From: Nitrosopumilus sp.
GTDB lineage: Archaea > Thermoproteota > Nitrososphaeria > Nitrososphaerales > Nitrosopumilaceae
NCBI GenBank assembly: GCA_965218785.1
Contig: OZ244650.1
Location: 512,001-576,000, forward strand
DNA length: 64,000 nt
Direction of reading: 5' to 3'
Position 1 is the stretch's first letter. Each line of letters opens with the position of its first letter. The translations under genes and the position numbers were made by a program. The notes under the pieces are model-generated. The model did not search any database. It was not told the DNA's origin and was given only the letters and a program-made list of their open reading frames with translations. Positions 5,427-29,196 of this stretch are shown here, in pieces.

Positions 5427-6050
5427 ATGGACTTTAACTTTATTTTACTATTTATCGAATTAATCCCACTTCAATTTGATTTTATGGGAGGAGCCGAACG
5501 AGGCGCACTTGGCAGCGATGATCCAATAATCCAAGGCTTGATTCTTTCAATGTTTGCAGTATCTGGATTTGGGATCCTGCTTAATATTTTCAATGCCGCA
5601 GTCCGAAAGAAGATGGTTGATCAAACAAAACTTACACGTATCATGAAGGAGACCCGTACATGGCAAAAAGAAAGAATGACTGCCATGCGATCCAAGGATC
5701 AGGCCAGAATCAACGAGCTGGGCAAAAAATCTTCCTACATGAACAAAATGTCCATGGAGATGATGCAGATGAACATGAGACCTATGATGATTACCTTTGT
5801 ACCATTAATCCTGATATTCTATCTTGTGTTGCCGCAATTATTCTCTTATACGGTAGCCCTGTCCCCAATTCCACTAAATGTGATTCCCGGAGATTTCTTC
5901 CAGTTGACATGTACTGCAGAACAAGCAGCTGATGTAGAACATGTCTGTCAGGAAGAAAATTCAATATATCTTTGGGCCTGGTATTTCCTATCCTCCATCG
6001 CTTTTAGCGGGATTATCATGAAACTAACAAAAACAACAATGGGCACTTGA
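5427..6050 (+). CDS. EMC3/TMCO1 (DUF106) family membrane insertase-like protein
   Basis: TM-coiled coil-MRPMMITFVP-TM and WYFLSS motifs; canonical position after secY-adk. Confidence 0.88.
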   Translation: MDFNFILLFIELIPLQFDFMGGAERGALGSDDPIIQGLILSMFAVSGFGILLNIFNAAVRKKMVDQTKLTRIMKETRTWQKERMTAMRSKDQARINELGKKSSYMNKMSMEMMQMNMRPMMITFVPLILIFYLVLPQLFSYTVALSPIPLNVIPGDFFQLTCTAEQAADVEHVCQEENSIYLWAWYFLSSIAFSGIIMKLTKTTMGT

Positions 6051-6607
6051 CTAAATCCATTGTTATTTCCGGTCCCCCTGCAGTGGGAAAAACAACTGTT
6101 GCCAAGGGACTGGCAAAAGAATTCCAATTGAAATATCTAAGCGGAGGCGATGTGCTAAAACAAATGGCAAAGGAACAGGGTTTTGATTCTGATGGTAATG
6201 ATTGGTGGGATACCCAAGACGGCATGAAGTTTCTCCGTCAGCGTGAATCAAATCCAGAATTTGACAGAAAACTGGATGAAAAATTAGCTGGATTGTTCAA
6301 CCAGGGATGTATGGTTATCACAAGTTACACTCTGCCGTGGTTGGTAGATGACGGCATCAAAATCTGGCTAGACGGATCTCATACAAGCAGTACTGAAAGA
6401 ATGCAGTCCCGGGACAACATGAGTTCTGAAAAAGCCTATGAAATTACCCGGGTGAGATTTGATAAGAACAAGGCATTGTACAAAAAAATATACAATTTTG
6501 ATTTTGGCAGTGACAAGGACGTGTTTGATTTGATAATTAATACGGATAATCTTACCGCACAACAAGTAATCGATCATACAAAGGAAACGGTGAGAAAATT
6601 ACTGTGA
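6047..6607 (+). CDS. cmk: Cytidylate kinase
   Basis: ISGPPAVGKTT P-loop; synteny. Confidence 0.88.
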   Translation: MTKSIVISGPPAVGKTTVAKGLAKEFQLKYLSGGDVLKQMAKEQGFDSDGNDWWDTQDGMKFLRQRESNPEFDRKLDEKLAGLFNQGCMVITSYTLPWLVDDGIKIWLDGSHTSSTERMQSRDNMSSEKAYEITRVRFDKNKALYKKIYNFDFGSDKDVFDLIINTDNLTAQQVIDHTKETVRKLL

Positions 6608-7605
6608 CTCTCAAACAACTTGAGAATCTTGTTGAAATTGATCAAGATATCACAGACGACTCTTTTGGAACATATTATGATAAAAGAACGATTGAACAAC
6701 TGCTAAATTATGGAATCATACTGCTGGACAAACCTCCTGGTCCTACCAGCCACGAGGCTGTAGCATGGACAAAACGTATCTTGAAACTCCCAAAGATTGG
6801 CCATAGTGGGACACTTGATCCACAAGTTTCGGGTGTTTTACCGCTGGGTCTTGGCGAGGCCACAAAGGCATTGGGGATTTTACTTCTTGGTCCAAAGGAA
6901 TATCATGCGTTAGGCAGGCTCCACTCCCTTCCATCTAAGGAAAAACTGGATCAAACAATTGATCTGTTTAGGGGGGAGATCTTTCAAAAACCTCCTCAAC
7001 GCTCTGCTGTTCTAAGACAGACACGAACAAGAACTATTTATGAATTTGAAGTTTTAGAACAGAAAGAAAGACTGCTTTTAACCCGGATTTTATGTGAATC
7101 TGGAACCTATATTCGAAAATTATACTATGATTTGGGCGAAGTTCTTGGACCTGGTGCCACAATGATTGAACTAAGACGAACCAGAGTGAATCAATTCTAT
7201 GAAACTGACGGGCTGGTAACACTTCATGAACTTGCAAATGCATTTGCATTATGGGAGGAAAAAAAAGATGACAGTAAACTGACGAGTATTATCAAACCAG
7301 TTGAATATGCATTAAGTGAACTAAAATCCGTGGTAATCCGTGACTCTGCAGTAGATGCCCTGTGTCACGGGGCACAACTGGCAATTCCGGGAATTTTACA
7401 AATTTCTCCAAACCTAAAGCAGGGTGATACTGTTGGAGTTTATACACAAAAAGGAGAGGCAGTCGCCCTGGCCGAATCTACAATGTCCGAAGATGTGATC
7501 CGTGATGCCACAAAGGGATATGCGTTTGAAACAAAAAGAATCATTATGGCACCTAATACTTATCCAAAAAAATGGAGAACAAAACCAACCCCTCCAAAGG
7601 ATTAA
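6604..7605 (+). CDS. cbf5: H/ACA RNA-guided pseudouridine synthase Cbf5 (TruB family, PUA domain)
   Basis: DKPPGPTSH, GHSGTLDP and GTYIRKL motifs. Confidence 0.96.
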   Translation: MTLKQLENLVEIDQDITDDSFGTYYDKRTIEQLLNYGIILLDKPPGPTSHEAVAWTKRILKLPKIGHSGTLDPQVSGVLPLGLGEATKALGILLLGPKEYHALGRLHSLPSKEKLDQTIDLFRGEIFQKPPQRSAVLRQTRTRTIYEFEVLEQKERLLLTRILCESGTYIRKLYYDLGEVLGPGATMIELRRTRVNQFYETDGLVTLHELANAFALWEEKKDDSKLTSIIKPVEYALSELKSVVIRDSAVDALCHGAQLAIPGILQISPNLKQGDTVGVYTQKGEAVALAESTMSEDVIRDATKGYAFETKRIIMAPNTYPKKWRTKPTPPKD

Positions 7606-7631
7606 AAAATCAAGAGACGGTCTTAAAATAA

Positions 7632-8078
7632 TTGTTAGCAAAAAGTCTTGTAATCTTCATTGGTATTGGTCTGATTTCAGGCCTTGCCATAGGTGTTTAT
7701 CTCATTGATGTGAAAAATACAAGCCAGTTAGTTTTTGTTGACGGGCTCTCAGTTTCCATAGTTACAGAAAAATTTGATTTCAAACGGGGTGAGGAGATAA
7801 AAATTCAAATTGTAAATTCTGGAACCGTTCCATTAATCTTTCCTGATGTATCATCTGGCCTTAAAATCACCGGCCTATTTGGAATACTCATATATTCCCC
7901 GACTGCACCACAGGTGCTCTCCCCCCTCGAACCCGGAGATGAAATGGTATTATTCTGGGATCAAGTAAAAAACGACGGTGATCTGGCATTGGAGGGTCTT
8001 TACAAAATATCTGTAATGGGAACAGACAAACTGGGAAATCAAGTCGAAAAATCGACTATTGTAACAATTTGGAAGTAG
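7632..8078 (+). CDS. Membrane-anchored hypothetical protein with Ig-like beta-sandwich
   Basis: N-terminal TM; LEPGD...WDQ...G...GLYKI pattern typical of Ig-like surface domains. Confidence 0.7.
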   Translation: MLAKSLVIFIGIGLISGLAIGVYLIDVKNTSQLVFVDGLSVSIVTEKFDFKRGEEIKIQIVNSGTVPLIFPDVSSGLKITGLFGILIYSPTAPQVLSPLEPGDEMVLFWDQVKNDGDLALEGLYKISVMGTDKLGNQVEKSTIVTIWK

Positions 8079-24153: not shown

Positions 24154-24197
24154 ATCTTGAACAAAATCCTCAATGTCCACATAAAAATCTAGCTAGT

Positions 24198-24408
24198 TTA
24201 CTGCATCTGGAATGGAACCTACCAACAATTTGGCAGAGCGCATGCCAAGACCTGTGGTAATTGTAAGAAAGGTGCGCAACGATCTGATGACTGCCGGTGG
24301 AATGAAGATGTCTGGGATACTGATGACGTGTATTCTGATATGGTGCAGAAGAGGGCTAAATATGACAGAAAAACTGCTTGAGATACTAGGGTCGACTTGA
24401 CCTGTTAC
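24198..24408 (+). mobile_element. IS66-family transposase C-terminal remnant with probable right end
   Basis: EPTNNLAERxxRPVVIxRK is the IS66 TnpC C-terminal motif. The preceding LLH(P)G is frameshifted. The element ends in ...CCTGTTAC (24408), matching the GTAA/TTAC IS66 termini. Confidence 0.8.
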
Positions 24409-24868
24409 CTTTGGAGTTGGGTCAATTAACCATAAACCCTATTATTTAATTTTCATCCAATTCATCTACAATTCCATGGTCTAGCTTAGATTTAGTAGTA
24501 TTACTAATTCTTGTACCAGAATGTAGTAAATAAGAAGAAACATCTTCCTTACATCCATACAATGCTTTTATTCGTTTTTTTGTTCCTCATCCATTGTTAA
24601 TTATCTCCAATATCTCATCCTTTTATCACATTAAAATCAGCCTCAAAAAAGAGTATAATTGTAAGTACAATAGGAATAAAATATAGCCAAAGGCAGGCAT
24701 GCCTAATCTCTACATTGGAAACAAACCTTGGAATAAACATGCTTGAAGAAACAACAAACAAAGTTATCTCAATTTTGCGTTCCAGTAAACTTTCAGACAA
24801 TGCTCATACCTGAAGCATGTTAAATTAATTTTGAAGGTATCAAAGTTAATTTTTTGCCTTGTTTTGTA

Positions 24869-25657
24869 TTATTCAAATCTATTAATCCATCTTTGAATGA
24901 TCTCCCTTGATTCCTCTGGTAATTCTCCTTTAACTATTACTGGAAATTCAAATCTTTTTTGTAATTCCAACACTTGATTCTCTTGTCCAAAAGGATAGAT
25001 TTGCTGTTTAAATTGCCATAACAACCCCCCCTCTTTTTGAATTATATCCCGGTGAATCTCTTGCCATCTGCATGCAAATATTGGGTATATTCCCAACATT
25101 TTACACATTTCTAATTTTGTAACAATTTCTGATTTTGGTGTTTGACTTAGCATATTTTTTATTTCTACCCCTACTGTAATTTTTTTTATTTTATGTTCTG
25201 CAATAATATCTAACGTATGTCTAGTTCTGAACCACTCTTTTCCCCTATGTGATCTAACTTGTTTCTCTTTTAGTATCTCAAACCCATTTGCGCGTAATTC
25301 ATTTTTAACAAGATAATGAAGGTGCTCTCCTACCATCTTAGATGTCTTAACATCCGAATATCTGGAAATCCAATATCCCATATTTTCTATTTTTTTTACC
25401 ATGTTTTTTTCAATAAATTTGATTGGTAGTTTGGATGGAAAATAGAATTTTGCAGTGCCTACATCCCTAATATCATATTTTAGTGATTGAAGAATTCTTG
25501 ATTCCTCCAAATTATTTAACGCGTTTTTTACCTGACTTGCCGAATATCTTGTTTCTAGCATTATCTGTATGGTTGATTCATGTCTTGGTGTTTTTTTTGG
25601 ACGGTTTGAACTATCAAAAAAAAGTTCGATTATCCTTTTTTTTAACTCAACATCCAT
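24869..25657 (-). CDS. Winged-helix-like N-terminus + PD-(D/E)XK restriction-endonuclease-fold protein
   Basis: N-terminal ...SQVKNALNNLEESRIL...TAKFY wHTH pattern; GEHL, LDIIA and VEIKN nuclease motifs; probable start ATG 25657 (ORF is open to 25696). Confidence 0.72.
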   Translation of the reverse strand: MDVELKKRIIELFFDSSNRPKKTPRHESTIQIMLETRYSASQVKNALNNLEESRILQSLKYDIRDVGTAKFYFPSKLPIKFIEKNMVKKIENMGYWISRYSDVKTSKMVGEHLHYLVKNELRANGFEILKEKQVRSHRGKEWFRTRHTLDIIAEHKIKKITVGVEIKNMLSQTPKSEIVTKLEMCKMLGIYPIFACRWQEIHRDIIQKEGGLLWQFKQQIYPFGQENQVLELQKRFEFPVIVKGELPEESREIIQRWINRFE

Positions 25658-25665
25658 GCTTTTTT

Positions 25666-25695
25666 TGCGTAAAACATGAATTTGTATTTTACGCA
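25666..25695. promoter_or_regulatory. Palindrome TGCGTAAAA-N12-TTTTACGCA, putative operator of the nuclease gene
   Basis: Perfect 9-bp arms, 8 nt upstream of the probable ATG 25657. Confidence 0.6.
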
Positions 25696-25772
25696 TTTTA
25701 ATTGCTTATTTTATGCCTATTTTTCTAATTATTTAAATGAGCCAGATTCTATAATTCTGCTTAGATATTATA

Positions 25773-25889
25773 GTCAAGATCTTACAATGCTAATCCATGA
25801 TTAATTTAGCACATAACTTTTGTCAAATTTTATAATGTAAGTATTATATTTGCTAAAATATGCTAAAAATAGCACCATAAGATCTTGAC
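25773..25889. promoter_or_regulatory. Nested inverted repeats in the divergent promoter of the ATPase-toxin operon
   Basis: GTCAAGATCTTA (25773-84) and TAAGATCTTGAC (25878-89) are perfect inverted repeats. Two 24-bp boxes are also present: TGCTAA-N12-TTAGCA (25788-811) and TGCTAA-N12-ATAGCA (25851-874). Confidence 0.65.
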
Positions 25890-27800
25890 ATGACAGAAAA
25901 AACAACTGTGGATATCACACCTGATAAAAGCCTAATTCAGAAACTAGGCCTTACTGGATACAGAACTGCAGAAGCTATCTCTGAATTATTGGATAATTCA
26001 ATAGATGCAAGAATTTCAGGCCAAACTCAACGAATAGATGTCGTTTTAGATTATAGCAGAAAAGTCATATCGATATCTGACGGTGGTCTTGGAATGAATC
26101 TTGAAGAATTAAAAAATGGATTAACCATAGCGAAAGGTACAAAATTTGAAAAAGGGAAACTAGGTAAATTTGGATTGGGAATGAAAAGTGCCTGTTCTAC
26201 TTTGGGAAAGGAATTTACAATTACCACATCAAAACCTGATTCGAATTTGGAATTTTTTATACATTATGATGAGAAAAAATGGCTTGATGATTCATCAAGT
26301 ACTTGGCAAAATTTTGAAATTGAAACCAGTAAAAAAACACGTCCAGGGCATGGTACAACAATTAGAATTAGAAAACTAAATGTCCCATTATACCCAAATC
26401 AGTCATCTACATTAAGAAAAAATTTTGGAATACGATATGAACCATACATAAAATCTAATCAAATTTCTTTGTATATTAATTCAAGAGAATGTAAAGCACT
26501 AGAAATTTTAATCCAACCCGAAAGTAAACAGGAATTAGAGATAGAACTAGAGAATAATAATTATCTGAGAGGGTATATAGGATTGTTAGAGAAACGTTCC
26601 ATAAGAGGTGATTATGGAATTCATTTATACAAAAATGATAGGTTAATCAAGGCTTTTGACAAATTTGGCATACGTAGTCATCCTGAAGTTGCTAAAATAA
26701 TGGGTGAACTTCATCTTGATCATGTCCCAGTTAATTTCCATAAAACTGGTTTTATAGAGGAATCTTTAGAATACAGAGAAGCATTACATGTATTCAAAAC
26801 AGATCCTAAAGTTGTTAAGGCATTACGTAGTTCAATCAGTAAGGCCCCCCCTGCAACCTCTATCCAATCAGTCTTAAATTATTTTGTTAATGACAAAACA
26901 AAAGGAAAAATAAAAACCAGAATGAGCAATACCAACTCCAAAATTTTACTCAGCAAGGCAGATTCTTATGATATTCAATATGGGACAAAAAAAATTGAAT
27001 TTGATTTTGAAAATGGGAATGATGGTGAATTATATCGTATTGAAAGAATGCCTAATGGAGCAAAAATCAAAATCAACAGAAAAAGCCCAATTTTTACGAT
27101 AATTGGCAATCCCCTGTTCCTTATAGGCATGATAGAATTGGAGGTTAAAACCATAATAGATGATCCTGTAAAATACCGGGATTTTTTGAGAGAAAGAAAC
27201 GCCAATTGGAATAAATTCGTACAGGATTGGTCTGAAAAACAAGAAAAAATAACGAAAAAAAAGTCTCCTAAAGTAATTCCATTACTTAATTATTCACTAG
27301 TTGATGATTTGGGTGAACTACATGCATTTTTGAAGGAGACATTTGAATTTAATTTTCAATTTACGGCCCTTAGTACACTTGCACCATATTTACAAAATGC
27401 ATACAACAAAATGATCTATAATGTGGAGACTGTTAGAAACACCGGTCAGAATCTATATGATTTGTTAATTGATTATGGCGGTATGGAATTTACTGTTCTT
27501 CTAAATCCCAAAACTGAGGATATACAAAAAGCATTAGAATATTCTGAAAAAAAGAAGTTTATTGTAATTAGAGAATACTCTAACGTATCCAAAGATACGT
27601 GGGCTCCACCAGATAAAGCATGGTTGGATTTATTTGGAGAAATGAAACGTGGTTCATATTATATCAGGAGTGATGAATTGACAAATATTCTTGATAATTT
27701 ATTAGAAAAGCGTCTTACAAATCAAAATAGATTGGAAACTATAGCCAGACATAAAAATATGATAAATGAATTAAAGGTGTATTTGGGGAATACTGGATAA
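25890..27800 (+). CDS. MORC-type GHKL ATPase (HATPase_c_3 + S5-like) fused to a C-terminal type IV TA antitoxin-like (AbiEi/DUF6577-like) domain
   Basis: GHKL boxes ELLDNSIDA, DGGLGM, GKFGLGMK and GTTI; MORC S5 region GIHLYKNDRLI..GELHL..VNFHKTGF; C-terminal VLLNP..IVIRE..PPDKAWLDL..ELTNIL..RLETIARHK. Confidence 0.8.
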   Translation: MTEKTTVDITPDKSLIQKLGLTGYRTAEAISELLDNSIDARISGQTQRIDVVLDYSRKVISISDGGLGMNLEELKNGLTIAKGTKFEKGKLGKFGLGMKSACSTLGKEFTITTSKPDSNLEFFIHYDEKKWLDDSSSTWQNFEIETSKKTRPGHGTTIRIRKLNVPLYPNQSSTLRKNFGIRYEPYIKSNQISLYINSRECKALEILIQPESKQELEIELENNNYLRGYIGLLEKRSIRGDYGIHLYKNDRLIKAFDKFGIRSHPEVAKIMGELHLDHVPVNFHKTGFIEESLEYREALHVFKTDPKVVKALRSSISKAPPATSIQSVLNYFVNDKTKGKIKTRMSNTNSKILLSKADSYDIQYGTKKIEFDFENGNDGELYRIERMPNGAKIKINRKSPIFTIIGNPLFLIGMIELEVKTIIDDPVKYRDFLRERNANWNKFVQDWSEKQEKITKKKSPKVIPLLNYSLVDDLGELHAFLKETFEFNFQFTALSTLAPYLQNAYNKMIYNVETVRNTGQNLYDLLIDYGGMEFTVLLNPKTEDIQKALEYSEKKKFIVIREYSNVSKDTWAPPDKAWLDLFGEMKRGSYYIRSDELTNILDNLLEKRLTNQNRLETIARHKNMINELKVYLGNTG

Positions 27801-28921
27801 TGACATATCATTTTTCAACTGAATTAGAAAAAGACAATATAGAAAGAATCGCGAATAAATTTAATTTTGCAAATCCATTATACGTTGAAAAATTCATCAT
27901 GGATTTTGAAATGAATTATCACATTTCTCAAAATATTGATTGTTTGTTACGGGGTGGTATGTGCATGCCGTTTCATTCAGAGTTGAAAGTGAGACGATTA
28001 AGTATAGATATTGATTTGTTAACTGGTTTGGGTGTAGATGAAATACACGAGGCGATGGAAGAACTAGATAATAAATTACCAGATGTAAAAATTATAAAAC
28101 ATGAACCGAGAAATCCATACCCAATTCCCAATCTAGCCTCGTATTATGTTGAGTATGATTCCTGTTTTGGTAAACCTGAAACAGTGAAAATTGATTATTT
28201 GTGTGGTTTTTCATCAAATCTCCCAACACAAACTATTTCCAATGAACAAGAAATTATTGAATTCAAAATTGACTATCCTGCAAAAATTTTAACACGTGGT
28301 GCAATAATTGGGGATAAAATCACTACTCTTGCACTTGAAAAAATTGGTTTACAAAAATCAAAATTCCATGATATACCTAAGCAAATCTATGATATTGCAA
28401 CCTTGTTGAAAGGTGCTACAGAAAATGACATTAGTGAATCTTTGGATGCATTCATAACTCTTACTGGATTCAAAGTTAAAATATTTGGAAATGGGCTTTA
28501 TACGATTGGTGAAATAATTGACAGAATTAATTCTTCAATTCAAGGCTTATTTTCATTTAAATCCACTTTGACTACTACGGATGATTACGAGGGGTTTTTT
28601 GGTTCTTTTACAGGAACCTATCTTAATAGTACACAACGGTATAAAAAAACTCAACACATTTCCGATATTTTATTGGTATGGTTTTATGGAATTATTTTAA
28701 AAAAATTCTTTGAACATTCTATTTCAAAACAAGAAGCGGCTGCAAAAATATTTTCTATGGTTAGATCATATGATGTCATTCTTAATTCAAGTGTTGAAGA
28801 AAAAAAATCTACTAGCGAAGATCTTCTTAATACTATGCCAGAACTTTCATTTAAAAAAAATATTCTTAATGGAGTTCCTGCAGAACAGGTATTTGTTATA
28901 AACGAAATTTTTTCAGATTAA
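27800..28921 (+). CDS. AbiEii/AbiGii (MenT-like) nucleotidyltransferase toxin
   Basis: LRGG, RLSIDID, KIDY, GDKITTLA and KQIYDI motifs; TAATG stop/start overlap with the upstream gene. Confidence 0.88.
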   Translation: MTYHFSTELEKDNIERIANKFNFANPLYVEKFIMDFEMNYHISQNIDCLLRGGMCMPFHSELKVRRLSIDIDLLTGLGVDEIHEAMEELDNKLPDVKIIKHEPRNPYPIPNLASYYVEYDSCFGKPETVKIDYLCGFSSNLPTQTISNEQEIIEFKIDYPAKILTRGAIIGDKITTLALEKIGLQKSKFHDIPKQIYDIATLLKGATENDISESLDAFITLTGFKVKIFGNGLYTIGEIIDRINSSIQGLFSFKSTLTTTDDYEGFFGSFTGTYLNSTQRYKKTQHISDILLVWFYGIILKKFFEHSISKQEAAAKIFSMVRSYDVILNSSVEEKKSTSEDLLNTMPELSFKKNILNGVPAEQVFVINEIFSD

Positions 28922-29196
28922 ACATACCACACAATTTTGATATTTTTTGTATTGGATCTCTTGCGTAATTGAATCAATTTTATCAAATTACACGCATTTC
29001 TTCACAGCAAGATCTCAAAGCTGGGAATAACATACAATCCCATGTACATTGGGTGTTCATGAGTGTCAGTTGTGGGATTATTATCACGATCCTAGAGGAG
29101 GAAGAAAAAAGAGAGTATACTAGCATCCAAACCAGTCAGAAGACCCAGTACCGTTTTGCGTATAGATAAATACCGATATACCGTGACTCCTTTGAG

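Follow-up and report, generated by a model that had tools for sequence, protein, structure and literature searches.

The 64,000-nucleotide stretch of a Nitrosopumilus sp. genome analysed here (contig OZ244650.1, positions 512,001 to 576,000; hereafter the window) carries three intact open reading frames (ORFs) between core operons: one on the minus strand at 24869-25696 (275 amino acids, aa) and two on the plus strand at 25890-27800 (636 aa) and 27800-28921 (373 aa). The subject of this work is the plus-strand pair, in which a MORC-like ATPase, with a C-terminal domain assigned from sequence and predicted fold to the AbiEi antitoxin type, is encoded directly upstream of a putative AbiEii/DUF1814 nucleotidyltransferase toxin. 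Few toxin-antitoxin families are as widespread as the AbiE and MenAT toxins, and for prokaryotic MORC ATPases, which are little studied experimentally, a role in defence has been a prediction since 2008. The antitoxin-induced auto-phosphorylation of such toxins has been worked out lately, and only for small two-domain antitoxins. With an AbiEi domain carried on a MORC-type ATPase it becomes possible to study how neutralisation is made to depend on a signal, and this bears on how toxin-antitoxin and abortive-infection systems are triggered.

The ATPase fusion and its AbiEii neighbour

The N-terminal half of the 636-aa protein contains a GHKL (Bergerat) ATP-binding domain at residues 24-127 (25959-26270, plus strand), matched by Pfam HATPase_c_3 with 70 bits against a cut-off of 25, followed by an S5-fold transducer domain at residues 218-293 (26541-26768, plus strand) with a sub-threshold match to Morc6_S5, a family that is listed for many close homologues of the fusion. 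A profile of the fusion searched against the Protein Data Bank (PDB) retrieved MORC4 (2e-15), MORC3 and MORC2 ahead of PMS1/MutL (1e-4), with MORC4 and MORC3 matched in two stretches. In an alignment of 30 fusion relatives, whose identity to the window protein goes down to 42-43%, residues E32, N36, D64, G68, G92, G95, G97, K99, G155 and T156 are invariant, as is the S5 lysine K285 (NFHKTGF). All four Bergerat-fold ATP-binding motifs and the basic residue of the S5 domain are present, and the sequence points to a MORC-like GHKL-S5 ATPase. Full-length MzaB, the ATPase of the MZA system, was considered and rejected as an identification, the NCBIfam MzaB model giving 38.8 bits against a cut-off of 850 and only over residues 18-118, and the PADLOC model covering only residues 15-116.

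The C-terminal third of the protein (residues 472-636; 27303-27797, plus strand) was assigned through the PADLOC AbiEi model and its predicted fold. The model matches residues 473-634 with an E-value of 6.9e-6 over model positions ~75-236 of 240; since the match starts at position 74-75, it covers AbiEi apart from its winged helix. Among 50 relatives, 24 C-terminal regions match DUF6577 (best E 2.9e-9) and 24 match a PADLOC AbiEi model, and several further AbiEi models are also matched. Using VIA-align we compared an AlphaFold model of residues 301-636 (predicted local distance difference test score, pLDDT, 83.6) with all PDB representatives. AbiEi from S. agalactiae (6y8q_A) came first with Z 9.4 (root-mean-square deviation, rmsd, 2.9; 123 aligned residues) over chain residues 57-195, which are the AbiEi C-terminal domain, and the next row had Z 6.7. 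Rv2827c (1zel_B), which, like MenA3, is an AbiEi homologue, gave Z 5.7. Sequence and predicted fold together thus identify this third as an AbiEi-type, putatively antitoxicity-conferring, domain. When short stand-alone relatives of the domain were sought by a word-based search, only four fragments of the same fusion family came up.

Between the two lies a middle alpha/beta domain at residues 322-446 (26853-27227, plus strand), for which VIA-align against the PDB suggests a zincin/YbeY-like fold (2ejq_B, Z 6.5, rmsd 3.0, 94 aligned; 3e11_B, Z 4.8; 7y7o_A, Z 4.5). This assignment is tentative because the Z values of the predicted fold are middling. The HExxH motif is not present in the domain, where the consensus of the 30-relative alignment reads KNPLFLIGLIxIEA, and for residues 296-470 the clusters matched in a protein atlas (scores 0.91-0.92) were all without names. 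Pfam scans found no helix-turn-helix (HTH) family in the fusion, and the domain assignments leave residues 296-321 and 447-471 uncovered.

The stop codon of the fusion gene and the start codon of the downstream gene (27800-28921, plus strand) overlap as TAATG. The 373-aa product matches Pfam AbiEii with 38.3 bits (cut-off 22.5) and the PADLOC AbiEii model with an E-value of 1.4e-16, and residues G52, G53, R66, S68, D70, D72, K173, K194 and D198 are invariant in all 32 toxins aligned, so that by its sequence the toxin looks catalytically intact. Judged from spacing, not from an alignment, S68 of the R-x-S-x-D-x-D motif would correspond to S78 of MenT3 and T65 of AbiEii. An earlier note, made from the DNA sequence of the window without database searches, had described this pair as a MORC-like GHKL ATPase-antitoxin fusion coupled by TAATG to an AbiEii-type toxin; the GHKL and AbiEii motifs that it quoted were all found in the translations, and the HATPase_c_3, MORC, AbiEi and AbiEii matches are in agreement with that description.

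Linkage, distribution and genomic setting of the pair

To describe the distribution of the module we used a scan of one genome per species, which yielded 393 relatives of the ATPase, of which 77 loci were kept and examined. These comprise 53 full-length fusions and 24 sister ATPases, all chosen through the ATPase. The fusion loci belong to Nitrosopumilaceae (including Cenarchaeum), with one Nitrososphaera, one metagenome-assembled genome (MAG) labelled 'Dehalococcoidia' and one 'uncultured archaeon'. A profile built from the 32 toxins was run over every open frame of the 77 loci. An intact AbiEii gene lies directly downstream of the fusion in 35 of the 53 loci, and in 8 more the downstream AbiEii is damaged by truncation, a frameshift or a 1.3-1.4-kb insertion; 8 loci have none and the remaining 2 end at a contig edge. 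The gaps between fusion and intact AbiEii range from -61 to +24 nt and are mostly small overlaps. By the same profile none of the 24 sister loci carries AbiEii.

An independent test was performed on 201 Nitrosopumilaceae genomes with separate profiles for the fusion C-terminal region and for the toxin. The former was found in 23 genomes and the latter in 22, largely the same ones. By our own reading of the place tables, a fusion gene on the same strand immediately precedes 21 of the 22 intact toxin frames; the one exception begins 111 nt from a contig end. About 12 full-length fusion matches have no adjoining toxin, and the sole toxin in a fusion-free genome is a pseudogene. Antitoxin genes thus outlast toxins and never the reverse, which fits a toxin-antitoxin relationship. 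The pairwise identities of fusion and toxin correlate with r = 0.915 (32 pairs; 0 of 2000 permutations as high), as expected of linked genes. The spread is patchy, with matches in 8 of 27 genera and up to 6 per genome, and the upstream neighbours vary between unrelated housekeeping genes and transposases (IS66, DDE_3, DDE_Tnp_1). The ATPase-AbiEii pair is therefore a conserved, accessory and mobile module, and the placing of the ATPase fusion in the antitoxin slot, already proposed in the earlier note, is in agreement with this pairing.

Some individual loci are described here in their own right. The genome of the window contains a second copy of the module (G000:C1:1096353-1099396; L083:7351-10409), whose ATPase and toxin are 43% and 37% identical to those of the window; it has a 4-nt gene overlap, no nuclease and other promoter half-sites. 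The 'Dehalococcoidia' MAG (L012, contig CBDCTF010000004.1) carries a complete module, with an ATPase of 47% identity and an intact AbiEii, beside FBPase_3 (fructose-1,6-bisphosphatase family PF01950), and reflects either horizontal transfer or a mis-binned thaumarchaeal contig. At L013:8260-9504 and in L027 (between 8423 and 9758) the toxins are split by insertions of ~1.3-1.4 kb and the upstream ATPase gene is intact; the 414-aa ORF inserted in L013 has no Pfam match. Two large genomes of genus g2 (G071 and G089, 3.7-3.9 Mb) contain up to 5-6 matches to the fusion C-terminal region, several within ~80 kb and some degraded, which shows expansion and decay of the module in these genomes.

The fusion gene is preceded by a divergent promoter region (25697-25889) whose ATPase-proximal half is conserved. 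It holds an imperfect 43-nt inverted repeat (25773-25815 / 25847-25889), the right arm of which abuts the ATPase ATG, as well as recurring TGCTA/TAGCA half-sites that surround an A/T-rich, TATA-like stretch; two base pairs of this type of repeat are compensated in L002. Given that a generic best-repeat search was too noisy in A/T-rich DNA, a constrained search was used for the other loci. A perfect inverted repeat of at least 5 bp, with a 10-13-nt A/T-rich, TATA-like spacer and located 7-27 nt before codon 1, was found in 22 of 54 regions, and in 17 of 2048 random windows of the same loci. Examples upstream of fusion genes are ATTTGCGAA-N11-TTCGCAAAT, TCCGGAA-N12-TTCCGGA, TGTAAA-N11-TTTACA and CTAGAA-N11-TTCTAG. 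The half-sites vary from lineage to lineage, and the two copies in the genome of the window also have different ones, which is the behaviour of self-specific operators. From these sequences the operon is probably autoregulated via lineage-specific inverted repeats that bracket a TATA-like box; the spacing suggests that the A/T-rich stretch is an archaeal TATA box and that the transcript would be nearly leaderless. Lineage-specific perfect repeats of this kind, 5-9 bp long and within 70 nt upstream of the fusion gene, are present in L008, L009, L011, L013, L016, L017, L020, L021, L023-L026, L029, L032, L038, L044, L046, L049, L050 and others.

In the window the module lies in an AT-rich insertion of ~5 kb (24181-29196, a 5016-nt interval) between the divergent genes rpoD (Rpb3-like) and SBDS, the former followed by ribosomal protein genes on the left flank and the latter by exosome genes on the right. 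The G+C content is ~0.30-0.32 over 24500-28999, against 0.41-0.47 in the flanks. This setting agrees with the island of three intact AT-rich genes between core operons that was first noted from the sequence. The interval is interpreted as an insertion because rpoD and SBDS are ~60 nt apart and divergent in most congeners (7 of 11 loci from other genomes of the genus); the gap is 0.5-1.2 kb in 3 of the 11 and SBDS is more than 1.5 kb away in 1. The four congeners with an enlarged or interrupted interval are L101, L102, L104 and L111, and insertions may recur in this gap between the divergent promoters. No tRNA gene was found inside the insertion or at its borders. Near the left border a 62-aa ORF (24212-24400, plus strand) looks like the C-terminus of an IS66-family transposase; its match to Pfam DDE_Tnp_IS66 stays below threshold (E 0.0039; 17.1 bits, cut-off 23.1; profile positions 252-283 of 284), and intact IS66 transposases adjoin the module in L016 and L027. 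The remnant was probably left behind by the event through which the island arrived.

Proposed mechanism and rival explanations

We put the probability at roughly 60% that the pair is a two-gene, AbiE/MenAT-type toxin-antitoxin (abortive-infection-like) cassette in which the 636-aa ATPase fusion occupies the antitoxin slot as the proposed control. By analogy with MenT and AbiEii the toxin would stop translation through nucleotide addition at tRNA 3' ends, and the AbiEi C-terminal domain of the fusion would bind AbiEii and keep it off. The usual N-terminal winged helix would have been replaced by the MORC-like GHKL-S5 ATPase and a zincin-like domain without HExxH. In GHKL-S5 proteins the ATPase module dimerises on ATP; here it could make neutralisation depend on ATP and on a cue, for example invading DNA or a viral protein, with the toxin being set free upon infection or when the cassette is lost. 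We infer such ATP-gated neutralisation because the catalytic residues of the ATPase are strictly conserved and because of the sister clade described below. Neutralisation itself may proceed by auto-phosphorylation, with the invariant S68 as the candidate acceptor by analogy with AbiE and MenAT3. In published work AbiEi binds AbiEii and induces its auto-phosphorylation at T65 (bioRxiv 10.64898/2026.01.19.700257), MenA3 does the same to MenT3 at S78, with R76 contacting ATP (PMC11375011), and a conserved antitoxin loop is needed for the reaction (both sources).

The 24 sister ATPases come from the Candidate Phyla Radiation (CPR), DPANN, Acidoferrum and others, are 419-557 aa long and share only residues 1-~320 with the window protein; the Morc6_S5 threshold is reached by 21 of them. 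Their downstream genes encode Trypsin_2 proteins in 2 loci, Clp or SDH proteases in 2, TIR/ThsB proteins in 2, and SduA_C and an 8xMP membrane protein in 1 each. In 11 further loci the product matches no Pfam family at E <= 0.01, in 1 (L067) there is only a weak, sub-threshold match to FtsH_ext, and in 4 no ORF was called downstream. The pattern suggests one conserved ATPase combined with exchangeable effectors, and the sister ATPases may constitute an undescribed defence family of that kind. In PADLOC they match only the first ~100 residues of MzaB (up to ~210 in one), and some also weakly match N-terminal parts of TmtA or of type II restriction-enzyme models. When fusion residues 301-636 were compared, profile against profile, with the C-terminal regions of 22 sisters, the two forms with a PEP-utilizers domain being left out, the probability was 2% and the E-value 0.024. 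A middle domain common to fusion and sisters thus lacks profile support, although the aligned stretch appears similar by eye. As for the individual loci, the ATPases of L053-L073 and L076 are ~500-557 aa long and lie near 6001-7640 in most, in CPR/Patescibacteria, DPANN, Acidoferrum, Dormiibacterota and actinobacterial MAGs. In L075:5980-7239 and L077:5968-7245 (Diapherotrites, Woesearchaeota) the GHKL-S5 ATPase is fused to a mobile (swivelling phosphohistidine) domain of PEP-utilising enzymes (91 bits).

Several results weigh against the two-gene cassette. The window fusion's own scores are just below the Pfam cut-off for Morc6_S5 (23.5 bits, cut-off 26.2) and below that for DUF6577 (26.0-27.6 bits, cut-off 27.8). 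A Foldseek search of the PDB with the model of residues 301-636 gave no match at E <= 0.001, and against PDB sequences the profile of the C-terminal region had no match at E <= 10 and the AbiEii profile none at E <= 1, so the predicted AbiEi fold depends on a single VIA-align row of Z 9.4. A complex prediction for residues 465-636 with AbiEii, run with our own alignments, scored 0.51, the best of 3 controls scoring 0.00; at least 94% of contacts are shared between runs, and the partners have pLDDT of at least 85. The mark that it passes is reached by 58 of 80 solved complexes and by 2 of 110 mismatched pairs, but at a score of 0.60 or less by only 7 of the 80 solved complexes and by both passing mismatches. 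The prediction thus supports binding weakly, and the pass may reflect likeness to the solved AbiEi:AbiEii complex. As to autoregulation, the inverted-repeat pattern is found in 22 of the 54 promoters and not in all, the lineage of the window is laid out differently, and no DNA-binding domain was recognised in either of the two conserved proteins. The fusion is intact without an intact toxin in 14 loci, so a separate function of the ATPase is possible.

The best surviving rival, which we consider possible but distinctly less probable than the cassette under ATPase control, is that of a purely selfish addiction module, stabilising mobile islands without any antiviral role and using the ATPase as an unusual scaffold. 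The asymmetry between toxin and antitoxin, the multi-copy arrays, the transposase neighbours and the frequent decay all fit selfish toxin-antitoxin behaviour. The AbiE preprint adds that S. agalactiae AbiE gave E. coli no protection against 32 coliphages, so that a defence role is not general to AbiE-type modules; the same text describes L. lactis AbiE as a known abortive-infection system (bioRxiv 10.64898/2026.01.19.700257). Arguing against a mere scaffold, the ATP-binding motifs and the S5 lysine are invariant down to 42-43% identity, as would suit a working ATPase, and the closest ATPase relatives adjoin classical defence effectors (TIR/ThsB, SduA_C, proteases).

A second rival concerns the divergent gene at 24869-25696 (minus strand), which the earlier note had proposed as a third component, acting as a second effector or regulator. 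Its product, possibly starting at Met14, near which the alignments of homologues begin, is predicted to combine a winged HTH (wHTH) with a PD-(D/E)xK nuclease (AlphaFold2 model, pLDDT 96.3). Residues 6-108 resemble the winged helix of 5aim_B (Z 10.7, rmsd 2.4, 91 aligned) and residues 120-275 adopt a restriction-endonuclease fold, with matches of Z 8.5-9.5 overall (1y88, Z 9.5; 2vld, Z 9.4; 7bdv, Z 9.3; also 9ibq); Foldseek retrieved Bax1 and PspGI with E ~5e-4. D163 is invariant and E178 and K180 nearly so among 44 sequences. The fold and the D...ExK motif therefore bear out the nuclease that had been read from the sequence. Pfam, PADLOC and NCBIfam library scans gave no family match for this protein, whose family comprises 240 cluster representatives. 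The divergent intergenic region, given earlier as 230 bp, has about that length if translation starts at Met14 (232 bp) and is 193 bp from the first ATG.

That this nuclease would complete a three-gene system, as a second effector or as a DNA-binding regulator in place of the lost AbiEi winged helix, finds its best argument in a small group of loci. Between the window, L001, L003 and L005 the DNA similarity is confined to exactly the three genes, breaking off no more than some tens of bases from the outer stop codons (window 24861-28981 versus L001: 95.5% over 4126 nt), and the flanks are unrelated, which indicates that a 4.1-kb block moved as a unit; L007 shows the same arrangement up to its contig end. 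Within the shared divergent promoter the half next to the ATPase is by far the better conserved, with its long inverted repeat, and it is this lineage, without the layout of repeats bracketing the TATA-like box, in which the neighbouring nuclease carries a winged helix. A functional tie between nuclease and pair is thus possible within this sub-lineage. A general role is not supported, however. By its family profile the nuclease stands beside the pair in only these 4 of the 77 fetched loci (L001, L003, L005 and L007), all close relatives of the window, and is lacking in the other 49 fusion loci, including L002 with 85% ATPase identity. Among the 201 genomes it has strong matches in 11, with the fusion in 8 and without it in 3, and adjoins the fusion only in the genome of the window; elsewhere its neighbours are unrelated (Mrr_N, an archaeal ATPase, TPR proteins). 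We consider the three-gene system unlikely. Regarding the ends of the 4.1-kb block, no terminal repeats or target duplications were seen there, and a 19-nt direct repeat (24852-24870 / 28935-28953, 79% identity) was rejected as a block end, as it is not kept in L001, L003 and L005.

It is quite improbable that the MORC-like ATPase is the principal actor, clamping DNA in a restriction-like manner with the AbiEii-like protein as an accessory nucleotidyltransferase: prokaryotic MORCs and paraMORCs were predicted to act on DNA with nucleases and helicases (PMC2292703), and the ATPase is kept in the 14 loci without an intact AbiEii, but the fusion has no conserved methylase, helicase or restriction gene beside it, its C-terminal domain resembles AbiEi specifically, and in the 201 genomes an intact AbiEii of this clade never occurs without the fusion.

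A wider and more speculative reading, to which we give clearly less than even odds, places the ATPase-controlled cassette and the sister loci in one broad and so far undescribed class of MORC-ATPase immune switches, where the ATPase would sense the invader and license, through ATP, a swappable effector. If this were true, Nitrosopumilaceae would use as effector an AbiEii tRNA nucleotidyltransferase held by the fused AbiEi domain, whose place would be taken by proteases, TIR domains or Shedu-type nucleases in CPR, DPANN and other lineages. The archaeal form would in that case amount to an energy-gated type VII toxin-antitoxin system, coupling the auto-phosphorylation control of the toxin to an ATPase cycle, with orthogonal autoregulation through co-evolving operator half-sites.

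Relation to known systems

Within an archaeal family of ecological importance the module is both conserved and abundant, and for the ammonia-oxidising archaea, whose virus defences are poorly known, it represents a further accessory element of defence or addiction. With the cassette proposed above, prokaryotic MORC ATPases would also gain a concrete partner that can be tested; should the toxin prove harmless or the ATPase dispensable, the locus is merely an oddly built member of a known family. PADLOC, run on the locus, returned the AbiEi and AbiEii matches and no described system with this architecture, and for the window fusion it matched no TmtA model. A GHKL/MORC-AbiEi fusion was described neither in the full-text literature searched nor in PADLOC-DB v2, although the supplements of PMC2292703 and PMC7848895 could hold sightings, and the earlier note, which knew of no named system with this architecture, agrees with these searches. 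The closest mentions are a 2013 review of defence systems, where DUF1814-COG5340 and MORC appear separately, and a 2021 passage on AbiE-family domains in sponge Thaumarchaeota in which the partner is not described (PMC7848895).

With the MORC and paraMORC proteins described in PMC2292703 the fusion shares the GHKL and S5 domains with intact motifs, the sporadic mobile spread, the variable C-termini and the linked effectors; paraMORC4 is described there with a fused or neighbouring TIR. The fusion thus has the GHKL and S5 hallmarks of this group but not its restriction-modification neighbourhood: those proteins adjoin restriction-modification genes, helicases and nucleases, whereas the fusion genes have unrelated housekeeping genes or transposases upstream and AbiEii downstream. 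The words 'nucleotidyltransferase' and 'toxin' do not occur in the main text of that article. Tiamat (TmtA) likewise has a GHL ATPase followed by an inactive metalloprotease-like fold and a C-terminal effector that is swapped among relatives. It is, however, one much larger polypeptide that has a DUF3684 core and, at its C-terminus, a PD-(D/E)xK nuclease, where the C-terminus of the window fusion is AbiEi-like; its authors set Tiamat apart from MORCs and paraMORCs (bioRxiv 10.64898/2026.09.30.754977).

MenAT3 and MenAT4 of M. tuberculosis belong to the same toxin superfamily, and the C-terminal model of the fusion resembles Rv2827c (1zel_B), as mentioned above. S68 in its R-x-S context fits the pattern of the phospho-acceptor S78, with R76 two residues before it (PMC11375011). 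MenAT antitoxins are two-domain proteins of ~22 kDa with no ATPase, in contrast to the 636-aa fusion. The nearest relative is AbiE of L. lactis and S. agalactiae, a DUF1814-COG5340 pair. The window toxin is likewise a DUF1814 protein with the G-G, R-x-S-x-D-x-D, D-K and K-x-x-x-D signatures, the antitoxin gene lies upstream of and overlaps the toxin gene in both, and both have an AbiEi-type C-terminal domain and promoter inverted repeats. The window toxin is longer (373 aa), with an unexplained C-terminal region, and its host is an archaeon of the Nitrosopumilaceae. Where the AbiE antitoxin has an N-terminal winged helix, the window fusion has ~470 residues of GHKL, S5 and zincin-like domains instead. 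The module thus departs from AbiE and MenAT in the N-terminal part of its antitoxin, and has their type of toxin, their antitoxin C-terminal domain and their antitoxin-first operon.

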